From Malacoraja senta (taxonomy: Eukaryota), in NCBI GenBank assembly GCA_038087875.1, contig CM075992.1, positions 4,094,001-4,158,000 of the forward strand: 64,000 bases of DNA. Direction: 5' to 3'. The notes under the pieces are model-generated. The model ran no database searches. It was not told the origin of the DNA and saw only the letters and a list, made by a program, of their open reading frames with translations. Made by a program: the position numbers and the translations under genes. This document shows, one piece after another, positions 3,796 to 64,000 of the stretch (position 1 is the first letter of the stretch; the number at the start of each line of letters is the position of its first letter).

Positions 3796-4442
3796 GTTTC
3801 TGTCCTGGGCCTCCTCCATTGTCAGAGTGAGGCCAAATGCAAATTGGAGGAACAGCATCTCATATTTCGCTTGGGCAGCTTACACCCCAGCGGTATGAAC
3901 ATTGACTTCTCTCGCTTCAAGTAGCTCTTGCATTCCTTCTCTCTCCATCCCACCCCCACCCAAGTCATGCCAGCTTCAAAATCATCTCGTTGAGTCTCAT
4001 TGTCTCTACTCATTCTCACCTGGGCCACACAGCTGACAGTGGCCTGTTTCTTTTGTCATCATTAATTTTCTGAACATCTTTCATTAATTTGTTCTATGCT
4101 GCGGGAGCAAAATGAGGGAAGAAGCTTAGCCTTCATTCACGGTGAGGAATGTGGGGAATCCACTGTGGTGGATGTTTATATTAAACTTGATGTAGTTGTG
4201 TGTCTTGGTGCTGTTTTTAGTATGGCTGTATGGTAATATCAACATCACTGTACCTTAATTAGTACACATGACAATAAAAGACCTTTGAAACCTTATATCT
4301 CTATACATCACCGTCTATATCTCTCGTTTCCCTTTCCCCAGACTCTCAGTTTGAAGAAAGGTCTTGACCCGAAACGTCACCCATTCCTTTCCTCCAGAGA
4401 TGCTGCCTGTCCCGCTGAGTTACTCCAGCATTTTGTGTCTAG
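3796..4442 (+). mobile_element. Penelope-like 3' fragment, interrupted by a ~190-bp LINE tail
   Basis: SVLGLLHCQSEAKCKLEEQHLIFRLGSLHPSGMNIDFS; degenerate hammerhead at 4351-4378. Confidence 0.8.
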
Positions 4443-4676
4443 CTTCTATCAAAAGTTTCCCAACTTATTTTTAATTTCTAAACTCCTAAAATTAAATTTG
4501 AGAACATATTCATCTTTCAGCCTGTAATTGAAACATTCATATTAATTAAAATCAAGCTGAAAGGAAGATGTGTAGGAAGGAACTACAGATGCTGGTTTAA
4601 ACCGAAGCTACTGTTGATCCAAAAAGCTGGAGTAACTCAGCGGGACAGGCAGCATCTCTGGAGCGAAGGAATGGGT

Positions 4677-4704
4677 GACGTTTCGGGTCGAGGCCCTTCT
4701 TCAG
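4677..4704 (-). ncRNA. Minimal hammerhead motif (subfamily B, one stem II mismatch)
   Basis: Minus strand CUGAAGAAGGGCCUCGACCCGAAACGUC. Confidence 0.6.
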
Positions 4705-5568
4705 ACTGGACTTCTTCCACGAAGGCTAACACCATGGTTCAAATGATTGGGACCATGTACAAAGGTTTGTGTAAAGCTGAGGGTACAAGTACAAAGTCTA
4801 TAGGGTCAGCAAAGCGGCGTAATGTTAGAGCAGCTGCCTCACAGCGCCAGAGACCCGGGTTCAATCCTGACCTTGGGTGCTGGCTGTGTGGAGTTTGCAT
4901 GTTCTCCCTGTGACCGCGTGGGTTTCCTCCCATATCTCAACGAAGGGTGATGGGTGATTTGATAAGCTGCTCCTGGTATGTGGGTGAGTTGTAGAATCCG
5001 ATGGAGGGTATTTGATAAATATTTGGGGAAAATAAATAATGTTATTTCTGCAGGATGAGTGCAACTGGGTTACACTACCAACCCTACCACTGTGCCACTG
5101 TGCCCTGCTATAAGTTCAGGCCCTCGAGTCCTGGCAACATTCTCATGTATCTTCTCTGCACTCTTTCCAGCTTGCTGAGATGTGAAGAGATGTAATCACA
5201 AGGGTAACATAAAAGAGATTTGGCAAGACCCAGAGCACTGCCGAGCAATTAGTACAGAGAGAGAGATCAAGGCTTGTTGATGAGATTTAAGACTTTAGTT
5301 TAGTTTAGAGATACAGCGCGGAAGCAGGCCCTTCAGCCCGCCGAGTCTGCGCCGGCCAGCGATCCCCGAACACTAACACTATCCTACACACACTAGGGAC
5401 AATTCACATGCACAGAAGCCAAATTAACCTACAAACGTCGAATGAGGGAGGAAACCGGAGCACCCGGGGAAAACCAACGAGGTCACGGGGGGAAGGTACA
5501 AACTCCGTACAGACAGCACCCGTAGTCAGGATCGAACCCGGGTCTCTGGCGCTGTAAGGCAGCAACTC

Positions 5569-5846
5569 CCGCTTGGAGTGCATACTGTCGTTGTGTCCTT
5601 GGGCAAGACACTTCACCTGCGTGTGAATGTGTGTGAATGTGTGTGAGTGATTGGTGGTGGTCGGAGGGGCCGTAGGCGCAGATTAGCAGCCACTCTTCCG
5701 TCAGTCTGCCCCAGGGCAGCTGTGGCTACAGAAGTAGCTCACCACCACCGAGTGTGACTGAGGAGTGAATGAATAATGCGATGTAAAGCGCCTTGAGTAT
5801 TAGAAAGGCGCTATATAAATCCCATCCATTATTATTATTATTATTT
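5569..5846 (+). mobile_element. 5'-truncated CORE-type SINE with L2 tail, nested in a V-SINE
   Basis: GTGTCCTTGGGCAAGACACTT CORE-like motif; L2-type 3' end TGTAAAGCGCCTTGAG...AAAGGCGCTATATAAAT(TAT)n; AACTC duplicated at 5564 and 5847. Confidence 0.75.
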
Positions 5847-7230
5847 AACTCTATCGCTGAACCACCGTGCCACAGCCCCTTGGAAAGCAGAGCTGGTTTA
5901 TTTATAGGAGGCAAACAGCGGATCTTCGGTAGCCACACAAGTCAATCTTTTTTCCAAGTATTGTGCACAATTCTAATGGACGACTCAAATACTCCAAAGA
6001 CATACTGGTTTGTAGGTTAATTGGCTTGGTAAAATTGTAAATTGTCCCTAGTGTGTGTAGGATGGTGTGAATGTGCGGGGATCGCTGGTCGGTGTGGTCT
6101 CGGTGGGATATCGGGCATGTTTTCCGCGCTGTATCTCTAAACTAAACCAAACCTAAACCTAATGCCCCTTCCTGCATCTGAATACATTTCGCTCCTATTT
6201 CTGATATTAGCTCTCAAATCTTTTACTGGCAAGGAAAATTTGTTCTGTTGTTTCATCCAAGTTGTTTATTGGAGAATTGTTTCCAACAGGAAGCAAAGAC
6301 TTTATCACATTAGTGGAATTGGATTGAAACACAAGATAAATTGACACCATGTCTACTCATTGCATCTATCCCTATTAAGAAAGGTTTAGTGATTCTAATT
6401 ATGATGTATAGTATCTCAAAAAGTCAATGAAGCTAATTTTCACTAATGTTTCATAATGAATTATGCAATATCATTTATTATTGGTGGGTTAGTTGATAAA
6501 GAATGATACTCACCTTCTTTAGTATCTGGGTTGGAAGACTCTACACACTCTAGGCCACCAAGTTCCAATCTTTTTTTTTATCATTTCACATTCTTTAGTA
6601 ATTATATGGCATCAAAATAAGAAGTCACTTCCTGCCGTAATGAAAGCTTGGGTGAACTTCAATTTTTCTTCCATAAAGAGAATTAAATAGGGCGGCGCGG
6701 TGGTGCAGCGGTAGAGTTGCCGCCTTATAGCGCCAGAGAACTGGGTGTAATCCTGACCCGGGTTCGATCCTGCTCTCTGTATGGAATTTTGTACGTTCTC
6801 ACTCTGACCTGCGTGGGTTTTCTCCGGGTGCTCTGGTTTCTTCCCATACTCCAAAGATGTGCAGGTTTGTAGGTTAATTGGCTCCTGTAAATTGTTCCTG
6901 GTGTGCAGGATAGAACTAGTGTACGGGTGAGGCGGACTCAGTGGGCCAAAGTTCTTTTACACAGAGAGTGGTGGGTGCCAGGGGTGGGGTGGAGGCAGAT
7001 ACAATAGTGGTGTTTAAGAGGCTTTTCGATAGGCACATGGAAATGCAGGGAATAAAGGGATATGGATAACGTGCAGGCAGATGAGATCAGTTTAACTTGG
7101 CATCACTTACGGCACAAGCATTGTGGGCTGATGGGCCCATTCCTGTGCTGTATAGATGTAAAGATGTCCCTATTGTGTAGGGTAGTGTTAATAGGGTTGT
7201 CAGATACAGTTGTTTCCAAGCTGTATCTCT

Positions 7231-7500
7231 AAACTCAACTCAACTCAACCCAACCCAACCCAACCCAACCCAACCCAACCCAACCCAACTCAACCCAACT
7301 CAACTCAACTCAACCCAACCCAACCCAACCCAACCAAACCCAACTCAACTCAACTCAACTCAACCCAACTCAACCCAACCCAACCCAACCCAACCCAACC
7401 CAACTCAACCCAACCCAACCCAACCCAACCCAACCCAACCCAACCCAACCCAACCCAACCCTACCCAACCCAACTCAACTCAACTCAACTCAACTAAACT
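7231..7500 (+). repeat. (CAACC/CAACT)n pentanucleotide microsatellite
   Basis: About 270 bp of 5-bp units grown from a SINE tail. Confidence 0.97.
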
Positions 7501-7724
7501 AAGTTGTAACGTTATACAGTGTTCACCAATGTCAAGGTCAAGGGAGTGTTGACAAATGCCCACTGGATTCTCACCAATATTTACCTAATAGACAAAGCCA
7601 CTAAATACGGATTATCTGATCAATAGGTTTGTTCGCAAAATTAAAATGCACGGGGTTATAGCAGTGTAAATCCTCGACTGACTGTGGACAGAATGCAGAG
7701 AGCAGTGCTGATCAGTCAGTATTT

Positions 7725-8141
7725 CTTAGGCCCCCCCTTCGGTCATGGCTGACCATGGGTGTCTCCAGGCTGCTATACCCTATATGGAGGACGCCTGTGC
7801 GTGACTTTATTTAACGGAGACTAGTGCACAGACAGCCACCCCACGGTCCTTGACAGATCTGGGTCAGGATCCAGTGGCGTGGAGTCCAAGACGACCTGAG
7901 ACCCTTTTCTGCTGCAGGCTTCATCCGCCTTCCCAGCCGTTGTGACGCTCCACTAAGGTCAGCCATCGTCCTCCGCCTGTTCCACCGTTGAGGTCTTGGT
8001 TGGATTGCTGTTTGTCAGAGGCCTCCCCCTCGACCTTACCGCCATGGGTGGCCCTATCAGGAGCATAGCTCCAGACGGCATCGCTCTCAGGATCTCAGGT
8101 CCACACAAGCTTCTCCACCACGACAAGGTGACGATCCACGG
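7725..8141 (-). mobile_element. Short non-autonomous RTE-derived element (5' UTR-like head plus 3' tail)
   Basis: 11-bp TSD AGTCAGTATTT (7714-7724, 8142-8152); minus-strand head CACCTTGTCGTGGTGGAGAAGCTTG...GGGCCACCCATGGCGG resembles RTE/BovB-type 5' UTRs (from recall); no ORF. Confidence 0.7.
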
Positions 8142-8282
8142 AGTCAGTATTTAGATCAGCTGAAAATGTTCTGCTGTTCCTACTCAGATGTGAGAATTAA
8201 GACAACTCCCCCCCCCCCACCCTTACAAATAATCTGAAGAAGGAAACTTCTCTTCTTCTTGCGTATGGCGTGCACAGCCTAA

Positions 8283-8638: not shown

Positions 8639-9049
8639 TAAAGTTGTAGGACAACTTGTTCTATTGGCACTTGTTTGATTGTGAAGGAGGGAACTGATTT
8701 AAAATGTTGCCTATCCATATGTGCAGGAAGGAACTGCAGATGCTGGTTTACATCGAAGATAGACACAACATGCTGGAGTAACTCAGCGGGACAGGCAACA
8801 TCTCTCTCCCCTGACTCTCAGTCTGAAGAAGGGTCTCAACCCAAAACATCACCTGTTCCTTTTCTACAGAGATGCTTCCCGACCCACTGTGTTACTCCAG
8901 CTTTTTGTGTCTATGTCGCCTATCCATGCTCTCTAGAGATGCTGCCTGACCGGTTGATTACTCCAGCACATTGTGTCTTTTTTTTATAGTAAACCTGCAT
9001 CTACAGTTCCCTGTGAGTTAATAATGATAATTCCTGTTTATCTGGCTCC

Positions 9050-9685: not shown

Positions 9686-11787
9686 GCACAGGAGCCTCAA
9701 GCAACAACAGATAGTTGACTGGGTTAAAGCCTTCAGTTGTTAACAATCTTGGACTTTTCCCATTAGGGGAGATAGGGATGTGATGGAAGAGGGGATCCCG
9801 ATGGATTTGCAGCACTGTACCATTGGGAAGTGGAAATGGATCCAGTGAGAAGCAAAAATCCAACTCCATTTGGCCTGGAAACATTGATCAAACCATGATT
9901 TAAAGGGTTGGAGATTTGTTATTTTCTCACTGCAATGAGATGAAAACCTACAGAGTCTGTGTGGATTAAAGCATCCTAGCGCAGGTATTAACCACTTCGA
10001 GTGATAGAATCATAGAGGTATAGAGTTATACAGTGCGGAAACAGGCCCTTCAGCCCAACTTAATCACACCAACCAACATGTCCCATCTACACCAGTCTCA
10101 CCTGCCTGCATTTGGCCCATTTCCCTCTAAACCTGTCCTATCCATGTACCTGTCCAAATGTTTCTTAAACATGGCGATAATCCCAGCCTCAACTACCTCC
10201 TCCAGCAGCTCGTTCCATACACCCACCACCCTTTGTGTAAAAAAGTTACTCCTCAGGTTCCTATTAAATTTTTCCGCCTTCACCTTAAACCTGTGTCCTC
10301 TAGTTCTCGATTATGGAGGTCGCTGGTCGGCGTGGACTCGGTGGGCCGAAGGGCCTGTTTCCGCGCCGTATCTCTACTCTAAATTAAACTATTGGAGGCC
10401 GGAAACATGTCAGTGTGAGTTTCCATGGAGGTTGAGCATATAAATTGGGCAGAATCGGACCACAGCTAATGTCACTGCCCTTGGAATACTCAAAGTGTCA
10501 CAAAGAGCTGGAGGGAGAGAATGGGCAATAATCACTTCTCAAAGAGGAAAAAGGACAAAACAGCCGTGTGGATTCTCACTGGTTTGGGAGATTGAGGATT
10601 TAGCCTTCTTACCAAATCCAATAGGCCGTGATTCTATTTACATTCAAAGGCTGAGATGCAGAAGAAAGTAAACACAACAAATGATACATTTCTGAGGAGC
10701 TCTGAATGATATTGATTGCCTTAAATCACCAAAGATTACAATTTCACAGGATCTTTATTTGTTAGATGCAGCTGGAATTACTAATGCTGTTTACTGGCTA
10801 AATCTTCAGTGAGTCCTAGAATTTTAACACATTTCTCCTTCAGTGTGGAGTTCAAAGAGAAGGAAGTAAAATAGTCATTTAATGCAACAAAACATACTTA
10901 AAGGGAAACAGTACAAGAACGACGTTGGGCTCAATGTCTCAATGGGCTTTCCTGTAGATGTTGCTCTAAGGGGTAGATCGATCCAGGGATATTGGGCGTT
11001 AAGTGGGAACATGGGACTAATTTCAAAGGAGCAGCCATAGTCATATTGAATGATAGTGGGCTATAAGGGGCAAATAGTCTGAAGGAGGGTCCTGACCTGA
11101 GACACCATCCATCCATGTTCTCCAGAGATGCTGCCTGGCCTGCAGAGTTACTCCAGCACTTTGTGTCCTTTTTTGTAATCCAGCACCTGCAGTTCCTTGA
11201 TTTTATTGTACGTATCCATGTCTGCTTCTATGAATCTATACACTGTAAATGGACGTCGCCTATTCCTTAGATGATGCCTCACCCACTGAGTTTCACCCAT
11301 TCCATAGATGATGCCTCACCCACTGAGTTTCTCCAGCATTTTTTGTCTACCTTCGATTTTTCCAGCATCTGCAGTTCTTTCTAAAACAACTGTGAATGGA
11401 TTGATTGTGATCATTGTTAACCTATGTATGATAAGTGTTTGACGGCACTGGGCCTGGACTCGCTGGAGTTTAGAAGAATGATGGGGGGGGTGGGGGTACC
11501 TCATTGAAACAAACAGAATAGTGAAAGGCTTGGATAGAGTGGATGTGGAGAGGATGTTTCCACTATTGGGAGACTCTAGGACTAGAGGTCACAGCTTCAG
11601 AATTAAAGGACGTTCCTTTAGGAAGGAGATGAGAAGACATTTATTTAGTCAGAGGGTGGTGACTCTGTGGAATTCTTTACCATAGAAGGCTGTGGAGGCC
11701 ATGTCAACAGATGTTATTTGAAGGTACACAAAAATGCTGGAGAAACTCAGCGGGTGCAGCAGCATCTATGGAGGGAAGGAAATAGGC

Positions 11788-11815
11788 AACGTTTCGGGCC
11801 GAAACCCTTCTTCAG
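11788..11815 (-). ncRNA. Minimal hammerhead ribozyme motif (subfamily A)
   Basis: Reverse complement of CTGAAGAAGGGTTTCGGCCCGAAACGTT. Confidence 0.68.
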
Positions 11816-13054
11816 ACTCAAATTCTTCAGAATCAAATATTTTTGATTCTTGATTAATAAAGGTGTCAGTTATGGGGAGAAGGCAGGAGAATGGGGTTTG
11901 GAGGGAGAGATAGATCAGCCATCAGACACAAAATGGTGGAGTAACTCAGTGGATCGGGCAGCATCTCTGGAGAATAGGAATAGGTGAAGAATCAGTCTGA
12001 AGAAGGGGTCCGACAAAACATCACCTATTCCTTCTCTCTAGAGATGCTGCCTGACCCACTGTGTTACTCCAGCATTGTGTGTCTATCTTCAGTTTAAACC
12101 AGCATCTTCAGTTCCTTCCTACACATACATTGCATAATATGGTATGGATTTCCTTGAGTACAGAATTGGTTAACTGTTTACATCTTCAAAAAAGAATTGT
12201 AAAAGGTTAGAAACCAAAAAAACATTGGGGAAAAATCAAGATCTAAATGTCATACACTGAGAATGAAAGCCTTGTGATTCAACAGTGGAACCAAAGCAAA
12301 CTTCAAGGGTAGTAAGGATATAGGATTGAACTGCAGATGTTGGTTTACAAAGCAAAGACACAAAGAATTGGTGTAACTCAGCTGGTCAGCAGCATTTCTG
12401 TAAAACACGGACAGGTGATGTTTCGGGCTGGGACCCTTCTTCAGACTGATTGCGGTGGTGGTGAGGGGGGGGGGGTGGAAGCAAGTAGAGAGGAGGGTTA
12501 GATCAAAGCCTGGTGAGTGATAGGTGGATACAGGTGAGTGAGGTTTTTTGTTAGGTAGATGGTTGGACAATGGCCAATTCCTCCACAGATCAGTTTAGTT
12601 TAGAGATACAGTGCGGAAACGGGACCCTCGGCCCACCAAGTTCGTGCCGACCAGTGATCCCCGCACACTAGCACTACCCTACACCCTGGGGACAATTGAC
12701 AATTTTTACCAAAGCCAATTTACCTCCAAACCTGTGCACCATTGGAAATAGGTCAGACCCTTCAGAGTTAAAGGACATTCTTTTAGGAAGGAGATAAGGA
12801 GAAATTTATTTAGTCAGAGGGTGGTGAATCTGTGGAATTCTTTGCCACAGACGGCTGTGGAGGCCAAGTCAGTGGATATTTTTAAGGCAGAGATAGATAG
12901 ATTCTTGATTAGTACGGGTGTCAGAGGTTATGGGGAGAAGGCAGGAGAATGGGGTTAGGAGGGAGAGATAGATCAGTCATGATTGAATGGCGGAGTAGAC
13001 TCGATGGGCCGAATGGCCTAATTCTACTCTGACCGGCTGAGTTCCTCAAACACT

Positions 13055-13154
13055 ACAGGGTCTGAAGAAGAGTTTCAGCCCGAAACGTTGCCTATTTCCT
13101 TCGCTCCATAGATGCTGCTGCACCCGCTGAGTTTCTCCAGCACTTTTGTCTACC
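13055..13154 (+). mobile_element. 100-bp hammerhead-headed mini-element nested in an older pseudo-LTR copy
   Basis: 13-bp TSD TTCCTCAAACACT (13042-13054, 13155-13167). Confidence 0.82.
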
Positions 13155-13363
13155 TTCCTCAAACACTTTGTCTTTTGCTCAGGATTCCAGCATTTTCAGT
13201 TCCTCACATCTCCAACCTCTCAAGAACTATCCAGTACATTTCCTATGGAGTCACACATGGGTTAAAGTTGATTAAAATCATAAATATAAATAGCTTGGGG
13301 GCTTTGCTTTCCTCAGTCCAGCCATTAACATCTGAGCGTGATGCAGTGCAGCACTTTGCTCAC

Positions 13364-17406: not shown

Positions 17407-18917
17407 CTAAGACAAAAGACAAGAGTTGAAACACTAAATGGTTTTAAGTTCCCACATTCCAGATCTGATTGATGCATTTCTAACGGCGGATGGGGTGTGG
17501 ATGCCGTTGGCTGTGCTACCACTGATCAGAAGGAATTCTCCTGGTGCTGTTCGAACATGGTGGCGCAGGGGTAGAGTTGCTGCCTCACACTGCCAGGGAC
17601 CCGGGTTCGATCCTGACTGTGGGTTCTGTCTGCATGGAGTTTGTACGCTCTCCCTGTGGCCTGCGCAAGGTTTCCCCTACACTCCAAAGACGTAGAAACA
17701 TAGAAACATTCAAATTAGGTGCAGGAGCAGGCCATTCTGTCCTTCAAGCCAGCACCGCCATTCAATATGATCATGGCCGATCATCCTAAATCAGTACCCC
17801 TTTACTGCTTTCTCCCCATATCCCTTGATTCCGTTAGCCCTAAAATGCTAGACCTTGGCCTCAGCAGTCAACTGTGTCGGTGGATATTGGACTTTCTCAG
17901 TGAACGCCCACAGACGGTGAGACTTGGACCCTACACCTCGACATCCCTGACCCTCAGCACAGGAGCACCGCAGGGCTGTGTGCTCAGTCCGCTCCTCTAC
18001 GCCCTATACACACATGACTGCGTGCCCCATCACCTCACAAATAGGATCATAAAATTTGCGGGCGATACAACCGTGGTGGGGCTCATCTCAAATGGGAACG
18101 AGGACGCCTATAGAGAGGAGGTGCACAGACTTTCTGAGTGGTGTGCTCACAACAATCTCTCTCTGAACACTAAAAAGACAAAGGAGATCATCACTGATTT
18201 CAGGCGACATAGAGCGGAGCTCAGGCCACTGGAGATAGGGGGCGAGGAGGTGGAGAGGGTGCCTAGTTTTAAATTTCTGGGGATCAACATCAGTGAGGAT
18301 CTTAAATGGTCTGTGAACTCTGCTGTAGTTGTAAAAAAGGCGCAACAGAGACTTTACTTCCTCAGAACACTGAGGAAGGCCCATCTGTCTGCTAAACTGC
18401 TGGAGTCTTTCTACCGCTGTTCAGTAGAAAGCATACTGACTTACTGCATAACTGCCTGGTTTGGGAACTGTTCAGCAGCTGACAGAGCAGCTCTCCAGAG
18501 GATGATAAAAACTGCCCAGGGTATCATTGGACTCCCCCTGCCCCCTCTGGAGGACATTTACCACTCCAGATGCCGCAGCAGGACCTGTAATATTGTGAAA
18601 GACATTACACATCCTTGTCACCACCTTTTCACACCGCTGCCCTCAGGAAAAAGGTACAGGTCGCTAAAGTCATGCACTGCCAGACTCAAGAACAGCTTTT
18701 ACCCATCAGCAATCTTGGGACTGAACTCTGTCTCGGGAGCGGGTTATGGGGAAGGAGGGGGGGTGGGAGACAATGTTAATTTATGTAAATGTGAATCCAT
18801 GGGTGGGTTTGGGGAGGGAGGGAGTGTAAAAGGTATGAGTATGTGAATGTTTGAAGTTCTTTTAAATGGAGAGACACAGTAATCTCGTTGTATGTGACAC
18901 ATGCAATGACAATAAAG

Positions 18918-19012
18918 TCTGAAGAAGGGTTTCGGCCCGAAACGTTACCTATTTCCTTCGCTCCATAGATGCTGCTGCACCCGCTGAGTTTCTCCAGCAT
19001 TTTTGTGTACCT
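18918..19012 (+). mobile_element. 95-bp hammerhead-headed Penelope-derived mini-element
   Basis: 12-bp TSD ATGACAATAAAG (18906-18917, 19013-19024). Confidence 0.88.
18919..18946 (+). ncRNA. Minimal type I hammerhead ribozyme motif (Penelope-associated, subfamily A)
   Basis: CUGAAGA-A-GGGU(UUCG)GCCC-GAAAC-GUU; core nucleotides intact; palindromic AACGUU in place of helix III. Confidence 0.7.
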
Positions 19013-21077: not shown

Positions 21078-22054
21078 CAACTCAGCGGGACAGGCAGCAT
21101 CTCTGGAGAGAAGGAATGGCTTATGTTTCAGGTCGAGACCCTTCTTCAGACTGGAGGCCATAATGTCATAAGGTCGGAGTAGAATTAGGCCATTCGGCCC
21201 ATCAAGTCAACTCCGCCATTCAATAATGGCTGATCTATCTCTCCCTCCTATCCCCATTCTCCTGCCTTCTCCCCATAACCTCTGACACCCGTACTAATCA
21301 AGAATCTATCCATCCCTGCCTTAAAAATATCCACTGAGTTGCCCTCCACAGATTCACCACCCTCTGACTAAAGAAAAGTCATGGGAAAGGGAAACGAGGG
21401 GTTTAGATGATGATGATACAGAGAGATATATAACAAATGAACGTAGCCAGTCTGGGTTAAAATATGGTCGCAGGAGGAATGACAGAGGGGGAGCAGCAAG
21501 ACAGGATGTTGTAGAGCTCTCATCGGAGAGAGGAGGAGAACTTCTTCATGGACATACCTTGAGGAGATATTTTAGTTTAGTTTAGAGATACAGAATGGAA
21601 ACAGGCCCTTCGGCCCACGAGTCCGCACCGACCAGTGATCATGCCTGTACACTATCTCTGAAGTCTAAAGTCTGCACAGGAACGGTTCCATTACAAACAA
21701 GTGTCATGTAACAGCTGTACTGTGGGTGAGTGTGGGAACTGTGGGAAGAACTGAGTTGTTATTCCACTTTGCGATGAACATGAGTAGCATTTCATTCTTC
21801 GGGGAATCAAACTTAGCTCCAGTGAAGCTTTCCTTCTGTGCAAGGCTAAACACATCTGCTTAACTTGTCTTCTTGGTGACAGGGACATGCTTCTGATGGG
21901 GAACAATTACACAATGCTGGGTCACACTGGCTAACCTTGTAAACAAGTGTACGTTGAAACAAGGAGCTGCAGATAGACAGAAAGTGCTGGAGTAACTCAG
22001 CGGTGAAAGTCAGCAGGACGACAGTGAAACTAGTAGCACTAGGGCAGTAACAAA

Positions 22055-23985: not shown

Positions 23986-24495
23986 AGGTAGATAGAAATG
24001 CTGGAGAAACTCAGCGGGTGAGGCAGCATCTATGGAGCGAAGGAAAAGGTGACATTTTGGGTCGAGACCCTTCTTCAGACTGATGTGGGGGTGGTGGGGG
24101 TGGGAAGAAGTAAGGAAGAGGTGGCGACAGTGGGCTGTGGGAGAGCTGGGAAGGGGAGGGGAAAGAGGGAGAAAGCAAGGACTACCTGAAATTGGGGAAG
24201 TCAATGTTCATACCGCTGGGGTGTAAACTACCCAAGCGAAATATGAGGTGCTGCTCCTCCAATTTGCAGTGGTCCTCACTCTGGCCATGGAGGAGGCCCA
24301 GGACAGAAAGGTCGGATTCGGAATGGGAGGGGGAGTTGAAGTGCTGAGCCACCGGGAGGTCAGGTTGGTTATGGCGAACACCGAGCGGAGGTGTTGGGCG
24401 AAGCGATCGCCAAGCCTACGCTTGGTCTCACCGATGTAGATCAGCTGACACCTAGAGCAGCGGATGCAATAGATGAGGTTGGAGGAGGTGCCGTG
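23986..24495 (-). mobile_element. Penelope-like element 3' fragment: GIY-YIG endonuclease plus pseudo-LTR with hammerhead motif
   Basis: Minus strand reads TSSNLIYCIRCSRCQLIYIGETKRRLGDRFAQHLRSV, then after a frameshift PVAQHFNSPSH...LEEQHLIFRLGSLHPSGMNIDF; followed by CTGAAGAAGGGTCTCGACCC; approximate TSD AGACTAGCTGT(T/A)GT at 23972 and 24505. Confidence 0.9.
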
Positions 24496-24922
24496 GTCAT
24501 CTTCAGACTAGCTGTAGTTTGATCAGGTTCGTCTATAACCTTCATTCACATATCAAGTGATGGCAAAGCCTTATTTCTCATTTAGCTTCCATTAAATACA
24601 AATCAGGCTCTGATGGTGAGCAGTGTTAGGCAGGTCAATCTGAAGTTGGCTGATGTCCAAATTCCCTCAACCCTGCACTACAAGGCAAGGCAAGCTTAAC
24701 TACAACAGTGTTACAAACATCAGGGCGGCATGGTGGCGCAGCGGTATCGTTGCTGCCTTACTGCGCCAGAGACCTAGGTTCGATCCTGACCACTGCCGCT
24801 GTCTGTACGGAGTTTGTACGATCTCTGGAGAGAAGGAATGTACACCCGATTCGGAAGAAGGGTCTCGACCCAAAACGTCACCCGTTCCTTCTCTCCAGAG
24901 AGGCTGCCTGTCCCGCTGAGTT

Positions 24923-44870: not shown

Positions 44871-44986
44871 ACGTTACGGGGAGTTTGCTTGAATGTTTCA
44901 AGTTTTTTCCTGACGATGTACACGCAGGTTTGTGTCTAGCGTATGAGTCGTGGTCTCACTGTCATCATTGTAATGTTTCCCTTTTC

Positions 44987-44997
44987 AAGGGGAAGGA
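44987..44997 (+). other. Polypurine tract of Gypsy element
   Basis: AAGGGGAAGGA abutting the 3' LTR. Confidence 0.85.
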
Positions 44998-46961: not shown

Positions 46962-47214
46962 CACCAACATTAATAACAGCACTTCTGTTCCCCTTTAACA
47001 ATACAATCATTTCAGACAACCTCAGTGTTTGAGAATCCAAAATCAAACATTTTTTATTTAAGGGCAATTTCAGAAACTGTAGAAACATAGAAAAATAGGT
47101 GCAGGAGGTGGCCATTCGGCCCTTCGAGCCAGCACCGCCATTCATTGTGATTATGTAAGCCTTAAATAGCCAATGGCTTAAATAGAAACACCAGTCACAC
47201 TGCCATTTTTAAGA

Positions 47215-47805
47215 CACAAAATGCCAGAGTAACTCAGCGGGACAGGTAGCATCCCTCGAGAATATGGATAGGTGATGTTTCACAGAGTGCTGGAGTTACT
47301 CAGCGGGTCAGGCAGCATCTGTGGTGAACATGGATAGGTGACGTTTCACAGAGTGCTGGAGTAACTCAGCGGGTCAGGCAGCATCTGTGGAGCGAAGGAA
47401 ATAGGCAACCTTTCGGGCTGAAACCCTGAAGGAAATAGGCAACGTTTCGGGCCGAAACCCGGAAGGGTTTCGGGCCGAAACGTTGCCTATTTCCTTCGCT
47501 CCATAGATGCTGCCGGAACATGGATAGGTGACGTTTCACAGAGTGCTGGAGTAACTCAGCGGGTCAGGCAGCATCTGTGGAGAACATGGATAGGTGACGT
47601 TTCACAGTGTGCTGGAGTAACTCAGCAGGTCAGGCAGCATCTCTGGATGAACATGGATAGGTGACGTTTCACAGAGTGCTGGAGTAACTCAGCGGGTCAG
47701 GCAGCATCTGTGGAGAACATGGATAGGTGACGTTTCACAGAGTGCTGGAGTAACTCAGCGGGTCAGGCAGCATCTGTGGAGAACATGGATAGGTGATGTT
47801 TCGGG
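47215..47805 (-). repeat. 66-bp minisatellite derived from the Penelope pseudo-LTR (~7 units)
   Basis: Unit CACAGAGTGCTGGAGTAACTCAGCGGGTCAGGCAGCATCTGTGGAGAACATGGATAGGTGACGTTT at about 47215, 47281, 47347 (partial), 47537, 47603, 47670, 47736. Confidence 0.9.
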
Positions 47806-48873
47806 TTGGAAGAAGGGTCCCGATCTAAAACGTCACCTATCCATGTTCTCCAACGATGTTATTCCAGCATTTTGTGTCTTTCCTTGGTATACCACCATCT
47901 GCAGTCCTTGTTTCCACACTGCTATGTTTTATTATTAATTTTCCAAGCACTGCATTATCATAAGGTCGTAAGTGATATGAGCAGAATTAAGGCCATTCGG
48001 CCCATCAAGTCTACTCTGCCATTCAGTCATGGCTGATCTATCTCTCCCTCCTAACCCCATCACCCTTGACATCTGCATCATTGTGTGAACCCATTCATAA
48101 ATGGGATCATTCTTGTAAACCTCCTCCGGACCCTCTCCGAGGCCAGCACATCCTTCCTCAGACATGGTGCCCAAAATTGCTCACAATACTCCAAATGCGG
48201 TCAGACCAGCTCCTTATAGAACCTCAGCTCTATCTGATCAGTTTGGATTGCATGCAAAACGAACCGTTCCGCTGTACCTCGGTACATGTGGCAAGAATAC
48301 TCCCGGACACAAATGCTGAACAAAACCTGCGGGAAGGCCAGTGAATTCTTTGTCCAGCATTTGCAGATTAACACAAAGCGTGGGCAGATGTTGTCAGTCT
48401 CACTATGGCTTTTAAAAAATTTAATATCTAGGAAGATTTGCAGACAAACACAGCTGAAGAGCATGTCAGAAATTCATTATCTTCAGCTGCCTGTCATAGT
48501 GGACCCAGGCTCTGGCCTCCGTCAATGTGATGCTTCTCAGCTGATGTGCGTTTGCAAGCAATGCGTGGCAGGGAGGCAGGAGGGTGAATCTGTGCTGTTC
48601 TCTGCATGGGTTTTGTGTGCCTGGGTTGTCTCCAAGGCGATCGTGGTAGCCGGTGCACACTTCAGCCACGGGAGGGCTTGCCAGTTAACGAGGGAGGAAT
48701 AGACAGGCCGACAGCACATGGATATCGTTGAGTGATCAGAGAAGGGGCCGCAGGGAGCCGCTAAGGCTGTCAGCTGCTCACGCCTCAACCCGGCTAACTT
48801 CATGTACAACATCAGCCAGGAGCAGAGAGACCACCACATTCAACCTCCCACACCAGCCCCTGGGCTCAACGCC

Positions 48874-50442: not shown

Positions 50443-51358
50443 GCAATGGCGCAGCGGGTAGAGCTGCTGCCTCACAGCGCCAGAGACCCAGGTTCGATCC
50501 TGCCCTCGGGTGCTGTCAGTGTGGAGTTTGCACGTGACCGCATGGGTGCTGCAGTTTCCTCCCACATCCCAAAGACGGGCGGGTTTGTAGGTTGGAGATA
50601 CGAGGAACTGCAGGCGCTGGTCTACCAAAAAGAACGCAAAGTGCTGGAGTAACTCAGCGGGTCAGGCAGCATATCCGGAGATCATGGATATGGGGGCGTC
50701 TTGGGTCGGGACCCTTCTTCAAACACATACCGAAGGGTCCTGACCCGAAACGTCACCTATTCATGTTCGCCAGAGATGGTGCATGACCCCGCTGAGTTAC
50801 TCCAGCACTTTGTACTTTTGCAGGTTAATTAGCCTCTGTAGAATTGTCCTTAGTGTGTAGGGAGTGGATGAAAAAGTGGGATAACATAGAACTAGTGGGA
50901 ATTATTGTATCTCTAAACTAAACTAAACTAAACTCCAAACACTAACTTACTATGAACTATTGAACTGTATCGGTTACACTGAGGACTTTGCACTTTTTGC
51001 ACTAATAATAGTTTTTTAATTTATGGAATTATTTTGCTTATTACCATACCTTAAACATGGTGTTTATGACCTGTTATAGAGACATAGAAAAACAGGTGCA
51101 GGAGTAGGCCATTCGCCCTTCGAGCCAGCACCGCCATTCAATATGATCATGGCTGATCATCCAAAATCAGTACCCCCGTTCCTGCTTTCTCCCCATATCC
51201 CTTGATTCCGGTAGCCCTAAGAGCTAAATCTAACTCTCTCTTGAAAACATCCAGTGAATTGGCCTGCACTGCCTTCTGTGGCAGAGAATTCCACAGATTC
51301 ACAACTCTCTGGGTGAAAAAGTTTTTCCTCATCTCAGTCCTAAATGGCCGACCCCTTA

Positions 51359-53860: not shown

Positions 53861-54456
53861 TTTCTATGCACTCCGTGGAAGGGAGGTTGGTTTGTGTGAC
53901 GTCTGGTTGGTTGCAAAGTCGGCAGCAGCAAAACTGATTGCAAGCACGCTGGTGCCCAAGACAGTACTGGAGAGGTTAATCCCTTTTCTTATCATCATGC
54001 AAATTCATGCCACTGTTTGAGAGAACAACAGATGCTGCTTTGTAGCCAGTGGGAGGGAAAAGAAAAATGGCAATTACAGCGTTATCTCCTAGTTTGCTCC
54101 CAGTGCTTCACAGCCAATGAATTGCAATTCTTTTGATCGTTAGATGCTGTTGCTATGTAGATAAGTGTAGCAACCAGTTCACCCAGACATGTTTGGTGAT
54201 GAATGAATAGTTTTAGTGTCTCTCCGACTCTCTCTCTCCTCTCTTTGAGCCACACTTTTGAACCCAGCTCTTAAACCAGGTGATGTTAAACCAAAGTGCC
54301 GGAGTAACTCTGTGGGTCAGGCAGCATCTCTGGAGAACACGGGTAGGTGACGTGATGGGTTGAGACCCTTCTTCAGACTGATGGTAGAGGGGGGTGGATG
54401 AGAAGAAAGCTACAAGAGAGGAGAGGCAGGACAAAGCGTGGCAGGTAATAGGTAGC

Positions 54457-55156: not shown

Positions 55157-56520
55157 AGTAGGACGTTCTCACACTGTAACTATCAGGAATTTGAAAATAA
55201 CAGCTTAATCTTTACAATCCTTCTTACTGCTGCCTCCAGTTCAATTGCCCAAACCTAAGTATGGGACTTACAAAATTTAGCCCATAATGGTTAAATCTCA
55301 GTTAAGACTCATCATTTTCAGCAACGCAGGACTGGAAGGATACACGATGGTGCCAGACATGGGATGACTCCCGGGTACTGACTCAATGTAACCTACTCTT
55401 CTTACACTTTATGTTTAGTTTAGAGATACAGCATGGAAACAGGCCCTTTGGCCCATCGAGTCCATGATGGGATCATTGACCACACATACACTAGTTCTAT
55501 CTTATCCTTCTTTTCCCCCCTGCATCCTACACCCTAGGCACAATTTTACAGAAACTAACTAACCTTCAAACCTGCACCTCCCTTTGGAGTGTGGGAGGAA
55601 GCCTGAGCTCCTGGAGAAAACCCACACGGTCGCAGGGAGAATGTACAACCTGAGTACAGACAGCACCCGTAGTCAGGATCGAATCCGCGTCTCTGGCGCT
55701 GCAAGTGTGGTAAGACAACGACTCTACCGCTGTTGATAACACTAACATTCCCACGAGAGGTTTTATTACCGTAACCCCAGGCTTTTAGTGCGGAATTAAT
55801 CCAGTCTCTCTGGGCAGTGGGTAATAATAGGCGACGTCACTTTTCACAAAGTTAATAAAGCGCTACTTAAAATTCTTTATTCCCACTAATAACAATTCTG
55901 AAGTAATTTCACTGAGACACAAGATATGCCTCAAGGGGCTGTAAAATTGGTGATGTAAATCGGAGCTCTCCGTTTGTACGATGTAATGCGGAAGAATGTC
56001 CGGCAAGAGAAGAGAGACCCCCCACCCCCGCCCCCCCCCCCCTAATCACTACATCAGCACCTTCACCACCACAGCGAGATCCTGCCTTACAATCTGTAGA
56101 GACCAGTCCTCAAGTCTCTTACCCAGTTTTGGGAAACCAAGAACCAGAGGAGATAGGTTGAAGATGAGAGGGGGCCACCGGGTCAATAGACAATAGACAA
56201 TAGGAGCAGGAGGAGGCCATTCGGCCCTTCGAGCCAGCACCGCCATTCAATGTGATCATGGCTGATCATGCCCAATCAGTACCCCATTCCTGCCTTCTCC
56301 CCATATCCCCTGACTCCGCTATCTTTAAGAGCCCTATCTAGCTCTCTCTTGAAAGCATCCAGAGAACCTGCCTCCACCGCCCTCTGAGGCAGAGAATTCC
56401 ACAGACTCACAACTCTGTGTGTGAGAAAAAGTGTTTCCTCGTCTCCGTTCTAAATGGCTTACCCCTTATTCTTAAACTGTGGCCCCTGGTTCTGGACTCC
56501 CCCAACACCGGGAACATGTT

Positions 56521-56742
56521 GTTAAAGAAGGAACTGCAGATGCTGGAAAATCGAAGGTACACAAAAATGCTGGAGAAACTCAGCGGGTGCAGCAGCATCT
56601 ATGGAGCGAAGGAAATAGGCAACGTTTCGGGCCGAAACCCTTCTTCAGACTGAAGAAGGGTTTCGGCCCGAAACGTTGCCTATTTCCTTCGCTCCATAGA
56701 TGCTGCTGCACCCGCTGAGTTTCTCCAGCATTTTTGTGTACG
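56521..56742. mobile_element. Inverted Penelope pseudo-LTR mini-insertion inside a CR1 fragment
   Basis: 11-bp TSD GGGAACATGTT (56510-56520, 56743-56753); palindrome 56557-56741. Confidence 0.88.
56621..56677. ncRNA. Two divergent hammerhead motifs (56621-56648 minus, 56650-56677 plus)
   Basis: Centre of a perfect palindrome: ...CTTCTTCAG-A-CTGAAGAAG... Confidence 0.68.
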
Positions 56743-57261
56743 GGGAACATGTTTCCTGCCTCTAGCGTGTCCAAACCCTTAACAATCTTATATGTTTCAA
56801 TAAGATATCCTCTCATCCTTCTAAACTCCAGAGTGTACAAGCCCAGCTGCTCCATTCTCCCAGCATATGACAGTCCCGCCATCCTGGGGATTAACCTTGT
56901 AAACCTACGCTGCACCCCCTCAATAGGAACATCGATCTCTGCGTATTAACGCTCTCCTACACACACAATAGGGCCAATTTACACTTATACCAGCCAATCA
57001 ATCAATACACCTTAAATTTAGTTTAGTGTAGATTGGTTTTGAAATACAGCGTGGAAACCTGAGAGGCAACGTCTTCACTAGGGTCAAGGAAAGAGCGTTC
57101 ACATCGCGGCCCTGTTTCCACCACCAGGCACAAGAAGCGCAAGAAGCGACAAGACAGACATCATTGTGTGCAGACGCCGAGAAGTGTGTTCAGCTCCTTC
57201 TGGACAACTTCTAATCTTGTGTGTGGGACTCGATAAGAAGAAGAACAAGAAGAAGAAGAAC

Positions 57262-57519
57262 CTCATATTCCGCTTGGGGAGTCTGCATCCTGGTGGCATG
57301 AACATTGAATTCTCACAATTCTGTTAGCCCCTGCTGTCTCCTCCCCTTCCCAGCTCTCCCTCAGCCACTCGGGCTCCTCCTCCTCCTTTTCCCTTTCTTC
57401 TCCCGTCCCACCCCCCATCAGTCTGAAGAAGGGTTTCGGCCCGAAACGTTGCCTATTTCCTTCGCTCCATAGACGCTGCTGCACCCGCTGAGTTTCTCCA
57501 GCATTTTTTTGTGTACCAT
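57262..57519 (+). mobile_element. Penelope-like 3' fragment (end of GIY-YIG domain plus pseudo-LTR)
   Basis: LIFRLGSLHPGGMNIEFSQFC* followed by the hammerhead motif at 57423; TSD GAAGAAGAACCTC at 57252-57264 and 57520-57532. Confidence 0.88.
57423..57450 (+). ncRNA. Minimal hammerhead ribozyme motif (subfamily A)
   Basis: CTGAAGAAGGGTTTCGGCCCGAAACGTT, on the same strand as the upstream GIY-YIG ORF remnant. Confidence 0.7.
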
Positions 57520-57832: not shown

Positions 57833-57940
57833 CTATTTTGTAGAGTCTGAAGAAGGGTTTCGGCCCGAAACGTTACCTATTTCCTTCGCTCCATAGATGC
57901 TGCTGCACCCGCTGAGTTTCTCCAGCATTTTTGTGTACCT
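57833..57940 (+). mobile_element. Hammerhead-headed mini-element inside an L2-like tail
   Basis: 13-bp TSD TACATATATACAT (57820-57832, 57941-57953). Confidence 0.82.
57847..57874 (+). ncRNA. Minimal hammerhead ribozyme motif (subfamily A)
   Basis: Identical 28-nt motif inside a TSD-flanked mini-insertion. Confidence 0.7.
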
Positions 57941-58823
57941 TACATATATACATGTAGCCCTCACTCAGAGGACGTCAGGAAAGGCTTGGGAGTGTAGATA
58001 AGTTTTTAGTCTTGACTTAAAGGAGTCGATGGAGGGGGCAGTTCTGATGGGAAGGGGGATGCTGTTCCACAGTCTAGGCTAAGGCGTGGTCGCCCCTGAG
58101 CTTATGCCTAGACCGTGGGATATTCAGCAACCCCAAGATATTTCATTCCTGCCTTGGGCTGGGGAAGAGAGTCGGTGCACTGAGGATGGGATTGAGTGAG
58201 GGGGACCGCCAAGGCAGAAATGAAGGAAAAGGCGATTCTTGTAACACAGTCGTAATGGAGGAGAAGATATTAAGAGTCTGGGCAAGGATGAGAAGACTCC
58301 GAGACATCACTCATGGGATCTATATCCAATTAAAATGTCCTTTCCTTCAGATTTATTCTTTATTGGAATCTGTAGCAGAGAGACCCATGTCATGAAATAT
58401 TCATGCAAGTGTATTAGGACGTTGGAAGGGATCATTTTCTGCAGCAGCGCTCGCGACTACCACAGCCTTAACTAAACGTCACAGTTCATTTGCGGGAAGA
58501 GAAACTGAGTTAACATTTCGGGTCGATGACCTTTCATCAGGGCTGGGGAAAGCTAGAAATCAAACACGTCTCAGGTTGCAGAGAGAGAGAGAGAGAGAGA
58601 AAGAAGCGGTGGAGAGAGAAATGAGGTGGATGTGAAGATGTGGGCCAGGGAAGGTTAGAAATAGAAACGTAGAAAACTAGGTGCTGGAGTAGGCCATTAA
58701 TTCGGCCCTTTGAGCCAGCATCGCCATTCAATATGATCATGACTGATCATCTAAAATCAGTACCCCGTTCCTGCTTTTTCCCCATATTCCCCTTTATTCC
58801 GTTAGGTATATGGCGATATCTAA

Positions 58824-58945
58824 GGTCGACAAAAATGCTGGAGAAACTCAGCGGGTGAGGCAGCATCAATGGAGCGAATAGGTGACGTTTCGGGTCGAGA
58901 CCCTTCTTCAGACCGTTTCGGGTCGAGACCCTTCTTCAGAGGAGG
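58824..58945 (-). mobile_element. Mini-element with duplicated hammerhead
   Basis: 15-bp TSD TATGGC(G/T)ATATCTAA (58809-58823, 58946-58960). Confidence 0.8.
58884..58939 (-). ncRNA. Tandem dimer of hammerhead motif (subfamily B)
   Basis: Minus strand: CUGAAGAAGGGUCUCGACCCGAAACG-GU-CUGAAGAAGGGUCUCGACCCGAAACGUC. Confidence 0.68.
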
Positions 58946-61610: not shown

Positions 61611-62582
61611 GGTTCTAAGTTGTTCTAGTTTCACATGCACTCCCTGCAAACTAGGAGCGATTTACAGAGGGCCATTTAAGCCACACACCCGCACATATTT
61701 GGGATGTGGGAGGAAACGGGAGCACCCGGAGAGAACCCACGCGGTCCCGGGGGAGAACGTACAAACTCCGCGCAGACAGCACCCAAAGTCAGGATCGAAC
61801 CCTCGTTTGGACAAACCTCTTAATTGTTTACTGTCTATTGTTTAGACAATAAGCTAAACTGAAAGTGAAGCCAGTTTGTGAGCTGAGAGCTCCAGAACTC
61901 CACCTCCATGCCACTGTGGACATTCCTTTAGGAAGGAGATGAGGATAAATTTCTTTAGTCAGAGGGTGGTGAATCTGTTGAATTCTTTGCTACAAAAGGC
62001 TGTGGAGGCCAAGTCAGTGGATATTTTGAAGGCAGAGATAGATGATTAGTACGGGTGTCAGAAGTTATGGGGAGAAGGCAGGAGAATGGGGTTAGGAGGG
62101 AGAGATAGATCAGCCATGTTTGAATGGTGGAGTAGACCTGATGGGCCGAATGGCCTAATTCTTCTCCTATCACATGAAGTGTGCCACTCGAATTGGTGAT
62201 AACCTATCCAAAACATGGAGAAAGCTCAAGAAGCTGAACGATTACTCGCGATCACCCAACCTAGGAGGAGGAGGAAGACTGGACATTTTGGTGCCTTCCC
62301 TCGCAGTGCAGAGTGTAGATTCTACTGTGGGCGGATGTTCGTGTTGAATTTCTTATAGTGTGTTGTGTCATTTTTTTCTATCTCTTTTTATTATTTGTAT
62401 GGATAGTCTTCCCTGTAAAGCACTTTGGCTTTTGATTGAAATCGACTGAAAAGTGCTATATTAAAAAAAAAATTAAAAAAAATTAAAAGACCTTCCCTCC
62501 ATCACGACGAGACAATGAGAAGCTCAGAATGAAGGAAGCGTACTACACATTGTGGCCTTGTTTAAAAAATAGTTCCCCCTGA

Positions 62583-63130
62583 ACATAGAGTCATTGTCAT
62601 AGAGTGATACAGCAAGGAACAGGCCCCTCGGCCCAACGTGCCCACACTAGCCAACAATGTGGCAGCTACACTAGTCCCACCTGCCTGCGTTTGGTCCATA
62701 TCCCTCCAAACCTGCCCTATCCATGTACCTGTCTAACTGTTTCTTAAACATTGGGATAGTCCCAGCCTCAACTACCTCCTCCGGCAGCTCGTTCCATACA
62801 CCCACCACCCTTTGTGTGAAAAAGTTACCCCTCAGATTCCTATTAAATCTTTTCCCCTTCACCTTAAACCTCTGTCCTCTGGTCCTCGATTCCCCTGCTC
62901 TGGGCAAGAGACTCTGTGCATCTACCCGATCTATTCCTCTCATGATTTTGTACACCTCTATAAGATCACCCCTCACCCTCCTGCGCTCCAAGGAATAGAG
63001 ACCCAGCCTACTCAACCTCTCCCTATAGCTCACACCCTCTAGTCCTGGCAACATCATCGTAAATATTCTCTGTACCCTTTCCAGCTTGGCAACATCTTTC
63101 CGAGAATATGATGCCCAGAACTGAACACAA
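62583..63130 (-). mobile_element. CR1-clade LINE 3' fragment (subfamily sharing its tail with the SINEs)
   Basis: ORF 62671-63057 LGLYSLERRRVRGDLIEVYKIM...FFTQRVVGVWNELP. Confidence 0.9.
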
Positions 63131-63617
63131 CACAGCGATCAAAGCTGAACAAATTAAGTTGAATAACTATCAGAATAAAAAAAGATTAAATTAAAATGTG
63201 CAATATAGACTTAGAGAAGGGAGTCAATAAAAAAAAAGAAAGATATTTTATTGATCAGTATAAAGAAGTCAATATTTTGAGACCAGATGGAAATGCTCCC
63301 AGTTCAATTATTAGACATTCAATCACATCGGAATGAAATTCTAAACAACCGACATGAGGAAAGCTTATTACAACATAAAAAGCCTGCTATTGATGATAGT
63401 GTCGTGTTATATCAATGGACCTGGCAGAAGGAATGTGGTTGAGTGAATAATCACTAAGACCATGGTTGTCTGTCTCTGTAGCCTCACATCTAGAGTAATA
63501 CAGTGTGGAAACAGGCCCTTCAGCCCAACTTGCCCACGCCAACCAACATGTCCCATCTACGCTAGACCCACCTGCCTGCGTTTGGTCCATATCCCTCTAA
63601 AACCATGCTATCCATGT

Positions 63618-63739
63618 GTTAAAGAAGGAACTGCAGATGCTGGAAAATCGAAGGTACACAAAAATGCTGGAGAAACTCAGCGGGTGCAGCAGCATCTATG
63701 GAGCGAAGGAAATAGGTAACGTTTCGGGCCGAAACCCTT
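63618..63739 (-). mobile_element. Mini-element truncated inside the hammerhead, inserted in a CR1 fragment
   Basis: 10-bp TSD CTATCCATGT (63608-63617, 63740-63749). Confidence 0.82.
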
Positions 63740-64000
63740 CTATCCATGTACCTGTTTCTTAAACGTTGCGATAGTCCCTGCCTCAACTACCTCCTCCAGC
63801 AGCTCGTTCCATACACCCAACACCCTGTGTGTGACAACGTCGCCCCTAAGATTCCTATTAAATCTTCTCCCCTTCACCTTAAACCTGTGTCCTCTGGTCC
63901 TCGATTCCCCTACTCTGGGCAAGAGACTCTGTGCATCACTGCCTCAGCTTCTTGGCTACGGAGCCAGAATTCTTGCCTTTCCTTGAACCATCTGTTAATA

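Follow-up and report, generated by a model that had tools for sequence, protein, structure and literature searches.

The 64,000-nt stretch of the Malacoraja senta genome analysed here (GenBank assembly GCA_038087875.1, contig CM075992.1, positions 4,094,001 to 4,158,000; hereafter the window) is scattered with short termini of a Penelope-like element (PLE) and with the hammerhead ribozyme motif that belongs to them. An earlier note on this DNA had described about 20 such motifs in two subfamilies, A and B. All motif positions it listed were present as stated, and the count proved too low: the window holds 27 motif-like 28-mers, an older variant at 58512-58540(-) and 43 termini matched by a profile built from six window copies. 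The 11 core bases are all present in 11 of the 27 motifs; six of these (11788-, 18919+, 56621-, 57423+, 57847+ and 58884-) also retain helix II, the H position and the helix III pair, with a helix I that measures 2 bp or more. The motif at 4677-, previously given as an exact B copy, has a C-A mismatch in stem II, and that at 56650+, given as an A motif, is present but without helix I, since it lies at the centre of a head-to-head palindrome. Two motifs had been placed beside the end of a GIY-YIG open reading frame (ORF). One of these ends, 24211-24507(-), matches Pfam GIY-YIG (E 4e-5), whereas 57260-57519 contains just the final 185 nt ahead of the motif (ORF end and 3' untranslated region, UTR), without the GIY-YIG motif itself. 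Searching the window against Rfam (matches up to E = 5, 40 in all) returned no hammerhead family; its microRNA matches were rejected as palindromes or simple repeats far under the gathering scores.

Genome-wide abundance was estimated from 60 evenly spaced 10-kb stretches (599 kb in total). The sample yielded 230 profile matches to the termini, compared with 0 in shuffled sequence, and 49 descriptor matches to hammerhead cores, compared with 1. Extrapolated to 1.94 Gb, these numbers correspond to ~750,000 termini (650,000-850,000) and ~150,000 descriptor-passing cores (110,000-200,000). The density of one motif per 3 kb proposed earlier therefore fits the termini (one per 2.6 kb) but not the cores that pass the descriptor (one per ~13 kb). 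Exact 34-mers were found 12,964 times for A and 10,037 times for B, and reversed-pattern controls gave 0.

The genome was then searched with the GIY-YIG ORF end and a reverse transcriptase (RT) fragment, which led to 20 long-frame loci. One of them, L082(-), lies elsewhere in the genome and holds a complete element with a unit of 4,030 nt and a 1,249-aa ORF (P0001) in the order DKG, RT, CX4CX2C linker and GIY-YIG. The motif is present in both of its partial-tandem repeats, the pseudo-long terminal repeats (pseudo-LTRs). With C3 of the hammerhead core numbered 0, the predicted cut falls between +27 and +28 and the start codon ATG at +163, 163 nt after C3, an assignment backed by one homologue that opens with a similar peptide. 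Pfam recognized RVT_1 (E 1.9e-6) and GIY-YIG (E 0.0015) in P0001, both slightly short of the cut-offs, and at least 1,050 homologues were found at E <= 1e-20, the best 53% identical (8,000 candidates scored). The sequence between RT and endonuclease (EN), CNRKRCNTC, fits the zinc-finger-like CX2-5CXXC linker that defines the Neptune clade and is common to Nematis (PMC8557442; here and below, published work is cited from the accessible parts of each source). By its sequence, the element is thus a Penelope-like retroelement with a Neptune-type linker, a feature also of Nematis. Other hallmarks of EN+ PLEs were found as well, namely partial-tandem pseudo-LTRs, inverted copies and an optional 30-40-nt tail, and solo copies are 98-100% identical to the terminus of the intact element. 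The intact copy, with one motif in each repeat, and the published consensus (PMC4209133 Fig. S3) bear out the earlier assignment: the motif is the minimal type I hammerhead of a PLE, a kind already described. P0001 also contains a proline-rich, internally repetitive insert at residues ~160-520, which varies among young copies; the ORF is ~350 aa longer than its typical ~900-aa homologues. In L082(-), a second acceptor-like site (pyrimidine tract, then AG-ATG), shared by all three families A, B and C, lies at +29 to +50, immediately ahead of the tail. At +158 to +166 a donor-like AAG-GTATGC overlaps the start codon. No splice joint matching either site was seen among the RNA joints listed.

The ends of 95 young copies, chosen by tail, were mapped in the window, at the 60 sample loci and at 64 loci that had been targeted; copies close to the edge of a locus were excluded, as were six loci that were duplicates or satellite. 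The 3' ends fell into two clusters, +91 to +96 and +124 to +133, with the sites 36 nt apart. At the 5' end, 34 copies not flagged as inverted started at -8 to +8, 24 extended beyond -12 and 30 were flagged as inverted; the ends concentrated at -6 to +5, the first bases of the ribozyme. Target duplications of young copies measure 10-17 bp, with a range of 10-21 bp in the 24 of the 34 copies that have one (chance 2/150); in 17 of these the duplication lies no more than 11 nt from the junction. As a source of the pile-up, 5' transduction of donor flank was mostly rejected, the duplications mainly abutting the element. Across the families, homology stops by -5 in 67 of 125 complete motifs and carries on into a pyrimidine-rich UTR in 32, the other 26 being inverted. 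Two loci, L144 and L148 (G000:C1 3.87-4.03 Mb), belong to a ~2.45-kb satellite with one solo copy per unit and GAU in place of GUU at the cut triplet.

Across the genome, breaks at -2 (one-mismatch pattern) number 2,981 and those at -3 number 1,924, compared with 12,964 copies that have AGT. Tallied by eye among the matches listed, a G stood ahead of the break in 48 of 100 copies at -2 and 38 of 100 at -3, for expected fractions of 0.30 and 0.28 (p 1.6e-4 and 0.018). Junctions at which one copy jumps into the next, also read by eye (19 rows, mostly with indels, did not resolve), carried an untemplated G in 5 of 10 cases at -6 to -1 and in 0-1 of 20 elsewhere (Fisher p 0.002-0.009). The 5'-end site reads TCAGTCT, a match to the initiator consensus YYANWYY, and copying of a cap would be expected to leave an extra G, as in other retroelements.

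The predicted cut left much less of a trace. Raw pattern matches numbered 245 at +24, 201 at +28 (two-mismatch pattern), 136 at +31 and 203 at +33, of which 15/20, 28/30, 17/20 and 6/20, respectively, were true junctions on inspection; for contig C1 this gives an estimated 12, 21, 16 and 9 true junctions. Those at +28 are at most ~2x their neighbours, more than 10-fold rarer than breaks at -2 and partly explained by microhomology, and we did not accept them as a cleavage peak. Copies running far into the ORF begin either in a partial tandem or within -16 to +25 or +60 to +83, with one array unit as the sole case at +28 among the mapped loci. In RNA from organism A, the tail was covered at a depth of ~4,600 and the sequence immediately ahead of the motif at ~14, a drop partly due to upstream sequence that differs between families.

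The explanation that best covers these data, to which we give a probability of about 60%, is that a capped RNA begins at the hammerhead and is reverse-transcribed uncut from two downstream sites, giving abundant short solo insertions. Polymerase II would start at the initiator-like TCAGTCT, a sequence that would also serve helix I as its 5' strand; the extra G would represent the copied cap. Reverse transcription of the uncut RNA would begin ~95 and ~130 nt downstream, and run-off at the 5' end would leave the short solo insertions. A number of observations weigh against this explanation. On inspection, ~4 of the 34 unflagged copies prove to be inverted. The G excess is moderate, and A-to-G mutation or re-annealing at GGGU could contribute to it; most jump acceptors (~20/30) sit elsewhere. 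Of the four positions tested near the cut, +28 ranks first, and the start of one 165-nt array unit (L244) falls at +27/+28. RNA reads from organism A show no pile-up of ends, although the libraries are standard and the reads 90-99% alike, which makes this weak either way. The spot at which the 5' ends gather is also a textbook 3' splice acceptor (polypyrimidine tract and CAG), where a stall could give an equal pile-up. Drosophila virilis Penelope has an internal promoter in its pseudo-LTR, with the start site 46 nt upstream of a 75-nt intron (PMC2377424), and the end of that intron maps to helix I (PMC4209133), so that the start there is not at the ribozyme.

These last points suggest an alternative in which the RNA starts further upstream and RT stalls at a protein-bound splice acceptor or polypyrimidine tract before helix I. 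The tract and CAG lie directly ahead of helix I in families A, B and C, helix I is where the D. virilis Penelope intron ends (PMC4209133), and the 24 of 95 young copies that extend beyond -12 read through the site. We nevertheless regard this alternative as unlikely: it leaves unexplained an untemplated G confined to the -4/-3 junctions, the solo junctions share no common upstream exon and their target duplications mostly abut the element, and no GT-AG joint ending at the acceptor occurs among the RNA joints listed.

Self-propagation of the solo copies was also weighed, in which the 96-nt and 133-nt forms would be re-mobilised from host transcripts in the manner of short interspersed elements (SINEs) and inherit the 5' boundary of a founder. 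Internal RT initiation requires no free 3' end (PMC11167929), and exact A-type tails outnumber exact ORF-start sequences ~90-fold (31,785 against 348). The terminus is abundant in RNA on both strands, with 95-96% of placed oligo-dT reads continuing into unrelated sequence. The 5' ends, however, vary base by base from -6 to +7 with no single founder end, donor flank is mostly absent between target duplication and element, and the solo copies match the terminus of the intact element almost perfectly, which together make this route very improbable.

We next compared the ribozyme among copies, aligning 607 and clustering the 347 with enough coverage on the non-ribozyme columns. Six clusters had at least eight rows and 30 rows stayed unclustered, so that the division into two subfamilies is too simple. 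Between the four clusters of 9-146 rows, ribozyme differences were confined to loop II, H17 and two wobble positions; the changes among the larger subfamilies thus sit at fold-neutral sites, in agreement with the earlier view that they are compatible with the fold. Two 8-row clusters had further changes at the helix III pair, and in the oldest cluster (8 rows) G8 is replaced by A, possibly through CpG decay. Conservation of core against flank had been set beforehand as a refutation test, and its outcome was mixed: the core (1/11 columns vary) was better conserved than the linker (9/11) but not clearly better than the tail (11/43). An extra A precedes G10.1 in 97% of aligned copies, and the G10.1-C11.1 position is G-C or G-U in 299 of the 347 rows. 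The helix III palindrome, which could pair only between two copies, is ACGU in B and AACGUU in A, and is broken by CpG decay in many old copies.

Helix I, earlier described as 2-4 bp, is 2 bp long in both A and B, as it is in 35 of the 49 cores from the sample, and reaches 4 bp in an older family, C, which has 44 exact pattern matches. The upstream majority in family C, AGUU (14, 13, 14 and 20 of 24 copies, counted after dropping one duplicate), lay outside the search pattern and pairs with AACU to form the 4-bp helix; compared with this helix, one U-A pair is missing from A and B, with the loss on both strands. Among ten window copies there were no two-sided changes, and the 93% of cells that were paired did not exceed shuffles, so that evidence of covariation comes from family C only.

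Folding energies were computed with a model that ignores tertiary contacts and protein. For both A and B the hammerhead scaffold was predicted to be 4-6 kcal/mol less stable than the best fold. The gap widened to 10.5 kcal/mol when A carried its long tail, and a hairpin covering GAAA then had a probability of 0.94. The earlier statement that both subfamilies keep stem II pairing hence holds on paper only: in A, two changes make a rival hairpin that hides GAAA. We rejected misfolding as a property of A alone, as A and B both favour pairing of GGGU with bases past the cut; the copy at 58884 is the sole one folding as the scaffold. A double hammerhead was predicted at ~-6 kcal/mol, compared with -21 to -25 for the best dimer fold. 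These results support selection on the fold in master elements and do not support active dispersed copies, which by these predictions would be mostly inert debris. A genome seeded with working cutters is therefore not supported: the majority are decayed single monomers, their scaffold is predicted to be energetically unfavourable, and the cut site is not a preferred starting point of insertions. In the L082(-) 5' leader, the fold predicted pairs +1 to +9 with +120 to +128, adjoining the second end site. Pairing of the first core half with the end of the optional tail might possibly act as a switch between an RT-start fold and the ribozyme fold.

Head-to-head pairs followed a strict rule. In all 25 with both ends mapped, one arm ended at +79 to +102 and the other at +124 to +142 (p ~6e-8 assuming independent arms), as exemplified by the window insertion 56520-56741. 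The pair centres are mainly palindromes at -1 (342 exact cases in the genome) and +17. A tail on one end only was already known (PMC8557442, PMC3846280), and the strict arm rule would favour priming from both target strands over self-priming on an antisense template. The protein may prime from both nicked target strands, one per start site, and the two complementary DNAs (cDNAs) may then anneal at the palindromes of the ribozyme itself to give head-to-head pairs.

The 348 ORF-start copies were sampled through 59 loci and five others already mapped. Many consist of short units that run to +190 to +290 and then resume upstream, and oligo-A is present in some of them at +281 to +284. Intact in-line motifs occur in arrays of 3-13 near-identical units, and at L205, L230, L233 and L252 at least two consecutive units each carry a complete type I hammerhead, as in non-LTR retrozymes; the 66-nt array of the window lacks the 5' half of the core and does not have this structure. 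A single 12-bp target duplication encloses the whole 11-unit array L233, whose end, at +93, is an RT start site. An exact unit junction recurred at no second locus among ~30. These data suggest that each array arose in a single insertion through end-to-end jumps, and later expansion at the DNA level may have followed. On the capped, uncut template proposed above, 5'-to-3'-end jumps on short, sometimes oligo-adenylated transcripts would produce such retrozyme-like arrays.

Arrays are also what would be expected if cleavage were the main route, with dimeric hammerheads cutting tandem transcripts, monomers circularising for rolling-circle copying and dispersed copies cutting host transcripts, a model proposed in PMC4209133. 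The fold conserved across families, the intact in-line motifs and single target duplication of L233, the L244 unit starting at the cut and the ~0.1% of reads that carry the terminus in two oligo-dT runs fit this model. We consider it quite improbable, because breaks at +28 (201) are more than 10-fold rarer than at -2 and similar to those at neighbouring positions, no exact unit junction recurred among ~30 and the double hammerhead is predicted to be far less stable than the best dimer fold; 8 of 9 Xenopus retrozyme dimers likewise failed to cleave (bioRxiv 10.64898/2026.07.22.740005).

On the explanation favoured here, selection in master elements would maintain the ribozyme, and cutting would require either a dimer or the protein of the element; a cut in the 5' repeat would remove the cap together with 31 nt. 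A broader and more tentative synthesis, which we rate somewhat below even odds, is that the junctions record the whole PLE cycle: a transcript capped at helix I, a protein dimer that primes both strands, palindromes that join the cDNAs and cap-to-tail jumps that make arrays in one step. The hammerhead would then not be needed for making templates and would be a protein-gated decapping switch at the 5' end of the mRNA.

The PLE copies identified in the window are listed in Table 1.

Table 1 PLE-derived copies and motifs in the window (positions count from the first nucleotide of the 64,000-nt stretch)
Feature	Position	Strand	Details
Decayed B-type	4343..4449	+	Motif 4351-4378 (C3 mutated)
Solo B-type, long tail	4576..4708	-	Hammerhead 4677-4704 with C-A mismatch in stem II
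Decayed head-to-head pair	8727..8910	both	Motif 8823-8850(+)
Decayed copy	11063..11198	+	Motif 11079-11106 (8/11 core bases)
Solo A-type from -3	11720..11818	-	Intact hammerhead 11788-11815
Decayed head-to-head pair	11926..12118	both	Motif near 11997(+)
Older B-like copy	12328..12465	-	Motif 12417-12444, helix III pair lost
Solo A-type from -2	13060..13157	+	Core intact, stem II broken; 13-bp target duplication; absent from the earlier note
Solo A-type from -3	18916..19012	+	Intact hammerhead 18919-18946; 12-bp target duplication
Decayed B-type	21079..21153	-	Motif 21122-21149
5'-truncated PLE copy: GIY-YIG end, 3' UTR, B-type hammerhead, tail	23986..24491	-	Hammerhead 24051-24078 (G12 mutated); Pfam GIY-YIG on 24211-24507; 81% identity over 521 nt to the intact element
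Decayed B-type	24851..24922	+	Motif 24852-24879
Tandem array of 66-nt tail unit	47211..47882	both	Unit ~+20 to +86, without 5' half of core; young A-type head-to-head insertion within (47427-47513); inverted copy closes at 47805
Decayed head-to-head pair	50603..50811	both	Motifs 50695-50722(-) and 50727-50754(+)
Older B-like copy	54283..54409	-	Motif 54349-54376
Head-to-head insertion centred on TCAG-W-CTGA palindrome	56520..56741	both	Long arm on -: hammerhead 56621-56648 intact, end at +129; short arm on +: motif 56650-56677 without helix I, end at +92; 10-bp target duplication 56510-56519 and 56743-56752
5'-truncated PLE copy: ORF end, 3' UTR, A-type hammerhead, tail to first end site	57260..57519	+	Intact hammerhead 57423-57450 (motif audit)
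Solo A-type from -3	57844..57941	+	Intact hammerhead 57847-57874; 13-bp target duplication
Old family C copy	58456..58557	-	Motif 58512-58540; CUGAUGA core, 5-bp stem II, GUU-AAC; absent from the earlier note
Solo B-type	58818..58941	-	Intact hammerhead 58884-58911; partial second motif copy in front (58912-58941)
Solo A-type, +4 to +129	63616..63741	-	First core bases gone

Other mobile elements share the window. A young LTR retrotransposon with Gypsy domain order occupies 40457-45200(+), with an uninterrupted 1,405-aa frame (protease, RT, RNase H, integrase), and near-identical ~205-nt LTRs; a primer-binding site follows the 5' LTR, and the target duplication measures 5 bp. A decayed element at ~26900-30500(+), which from its layout we take to be DIRS-like, contains an RT-like stretch at 27863-28400 (by eye) and a weak tyrosine-recombinase match at 30191-30493 (E 0.005). 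A long interspersed element (LINE) RT fragment lies at 17719-18846(+) (RVT_1 E 6e-12), along with many dispersed LINE 3' ends and SINEs of a tRNA-like family, and such repeats host several of the PLE copies. At 57080-57113(+), 150 nt upstream of a PLE fragment, a weak partial match to the CPEB3 (hepatitis delta virus-like) ribozyme scores 25.4 bits (E 0.019), below the gathering score of 35, and is probably due to chance. No host exons were found among the 56 window ORFs scanned with Pfam (the window has 192 ORFs of at least 80 aa).

The link between hammerheads and PLEs dates from 2014, and their presence here was expected. The use of the ribozyme to the element and the origin of tandem and inverted PLE ends are open in the literature, and tens of thousands of young copies make both countable: the junction record names a predicted start site (-4/-3) and a predicted cut with little trace in insertions, and the strict arm rule separates two published kinds of model. 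The 5' pile-up at the ribozyme, the extra G and the strict arm rule are unreported in the accessible literature, most subscription papers and Repbase lying outside the search. Compared with the minimal hammerheads of metazoan PLEs (Cervera and De la Pena 2014, PMC4209133), the motif here has the same CUGANGAH core, extra base before G10.1-C11.1, GAAA-C-G-U-H, palindromic zero-loop helix III and U-rich upstream sequence, and it likewise occurs in both pseudo-LTRs and mainly as single dispersed copies. Its 4-bp helix II and 2-bp helix I lie at the short end of the 56 published examples, which in the accessible part of that source include no cartilaginous fish, and its ~150,000 cores far exceed the 4,000-9,000 for coelacanth and Xenopus, obtained with a different descriptor.

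The Poseidon element PAc of Anolis carolinensis (Frangieh et al. 2024, PMC11167929) offers a close parallel to the template proposed here: its RT initiates at two internal sites, its ribozyme depends on protein and most of its template is RNA that has not been cut. In both, two adjacent internal RT starts define an optional 30-40-nt tail and no RNA ends are found at the cut; an uncut main template would be a further likeness. The PAc ORF starts inside the ribozyme, whereas here it starts past both end sites, the element here has the Neptune/Nematis CX2-5CXXC linker, and a 5' pile-up at the ribozyme is not reported for PAc in the accessible text. Inverted pseudo-LTRs of Adineta vaga and of D. 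virilis Penelope (PMC3846280, PMC8557442) share with those here head-to-head repeats, palindromic junctions, a one-end tail and short target duplications; PMC3846280 invokes self-priming on an antisense template, and the 25/25 rule would be better accommodated by two-strand priming on sense RNA. The arrays resemble non-LTR retrozymes, surveyed with one chondrichthyan included (bioRxiv 10.64898/2026.07.22.740005), in their 165-440-nt tandem units, type I hammerheads and derivation from pseudo-LTRs. They differ in that the junctions here suggest single-insertion arrays, with no propagating array family among the ~30 junctions. If this reading is true, it would provide a direct route from PLEs to animal retrozymes.

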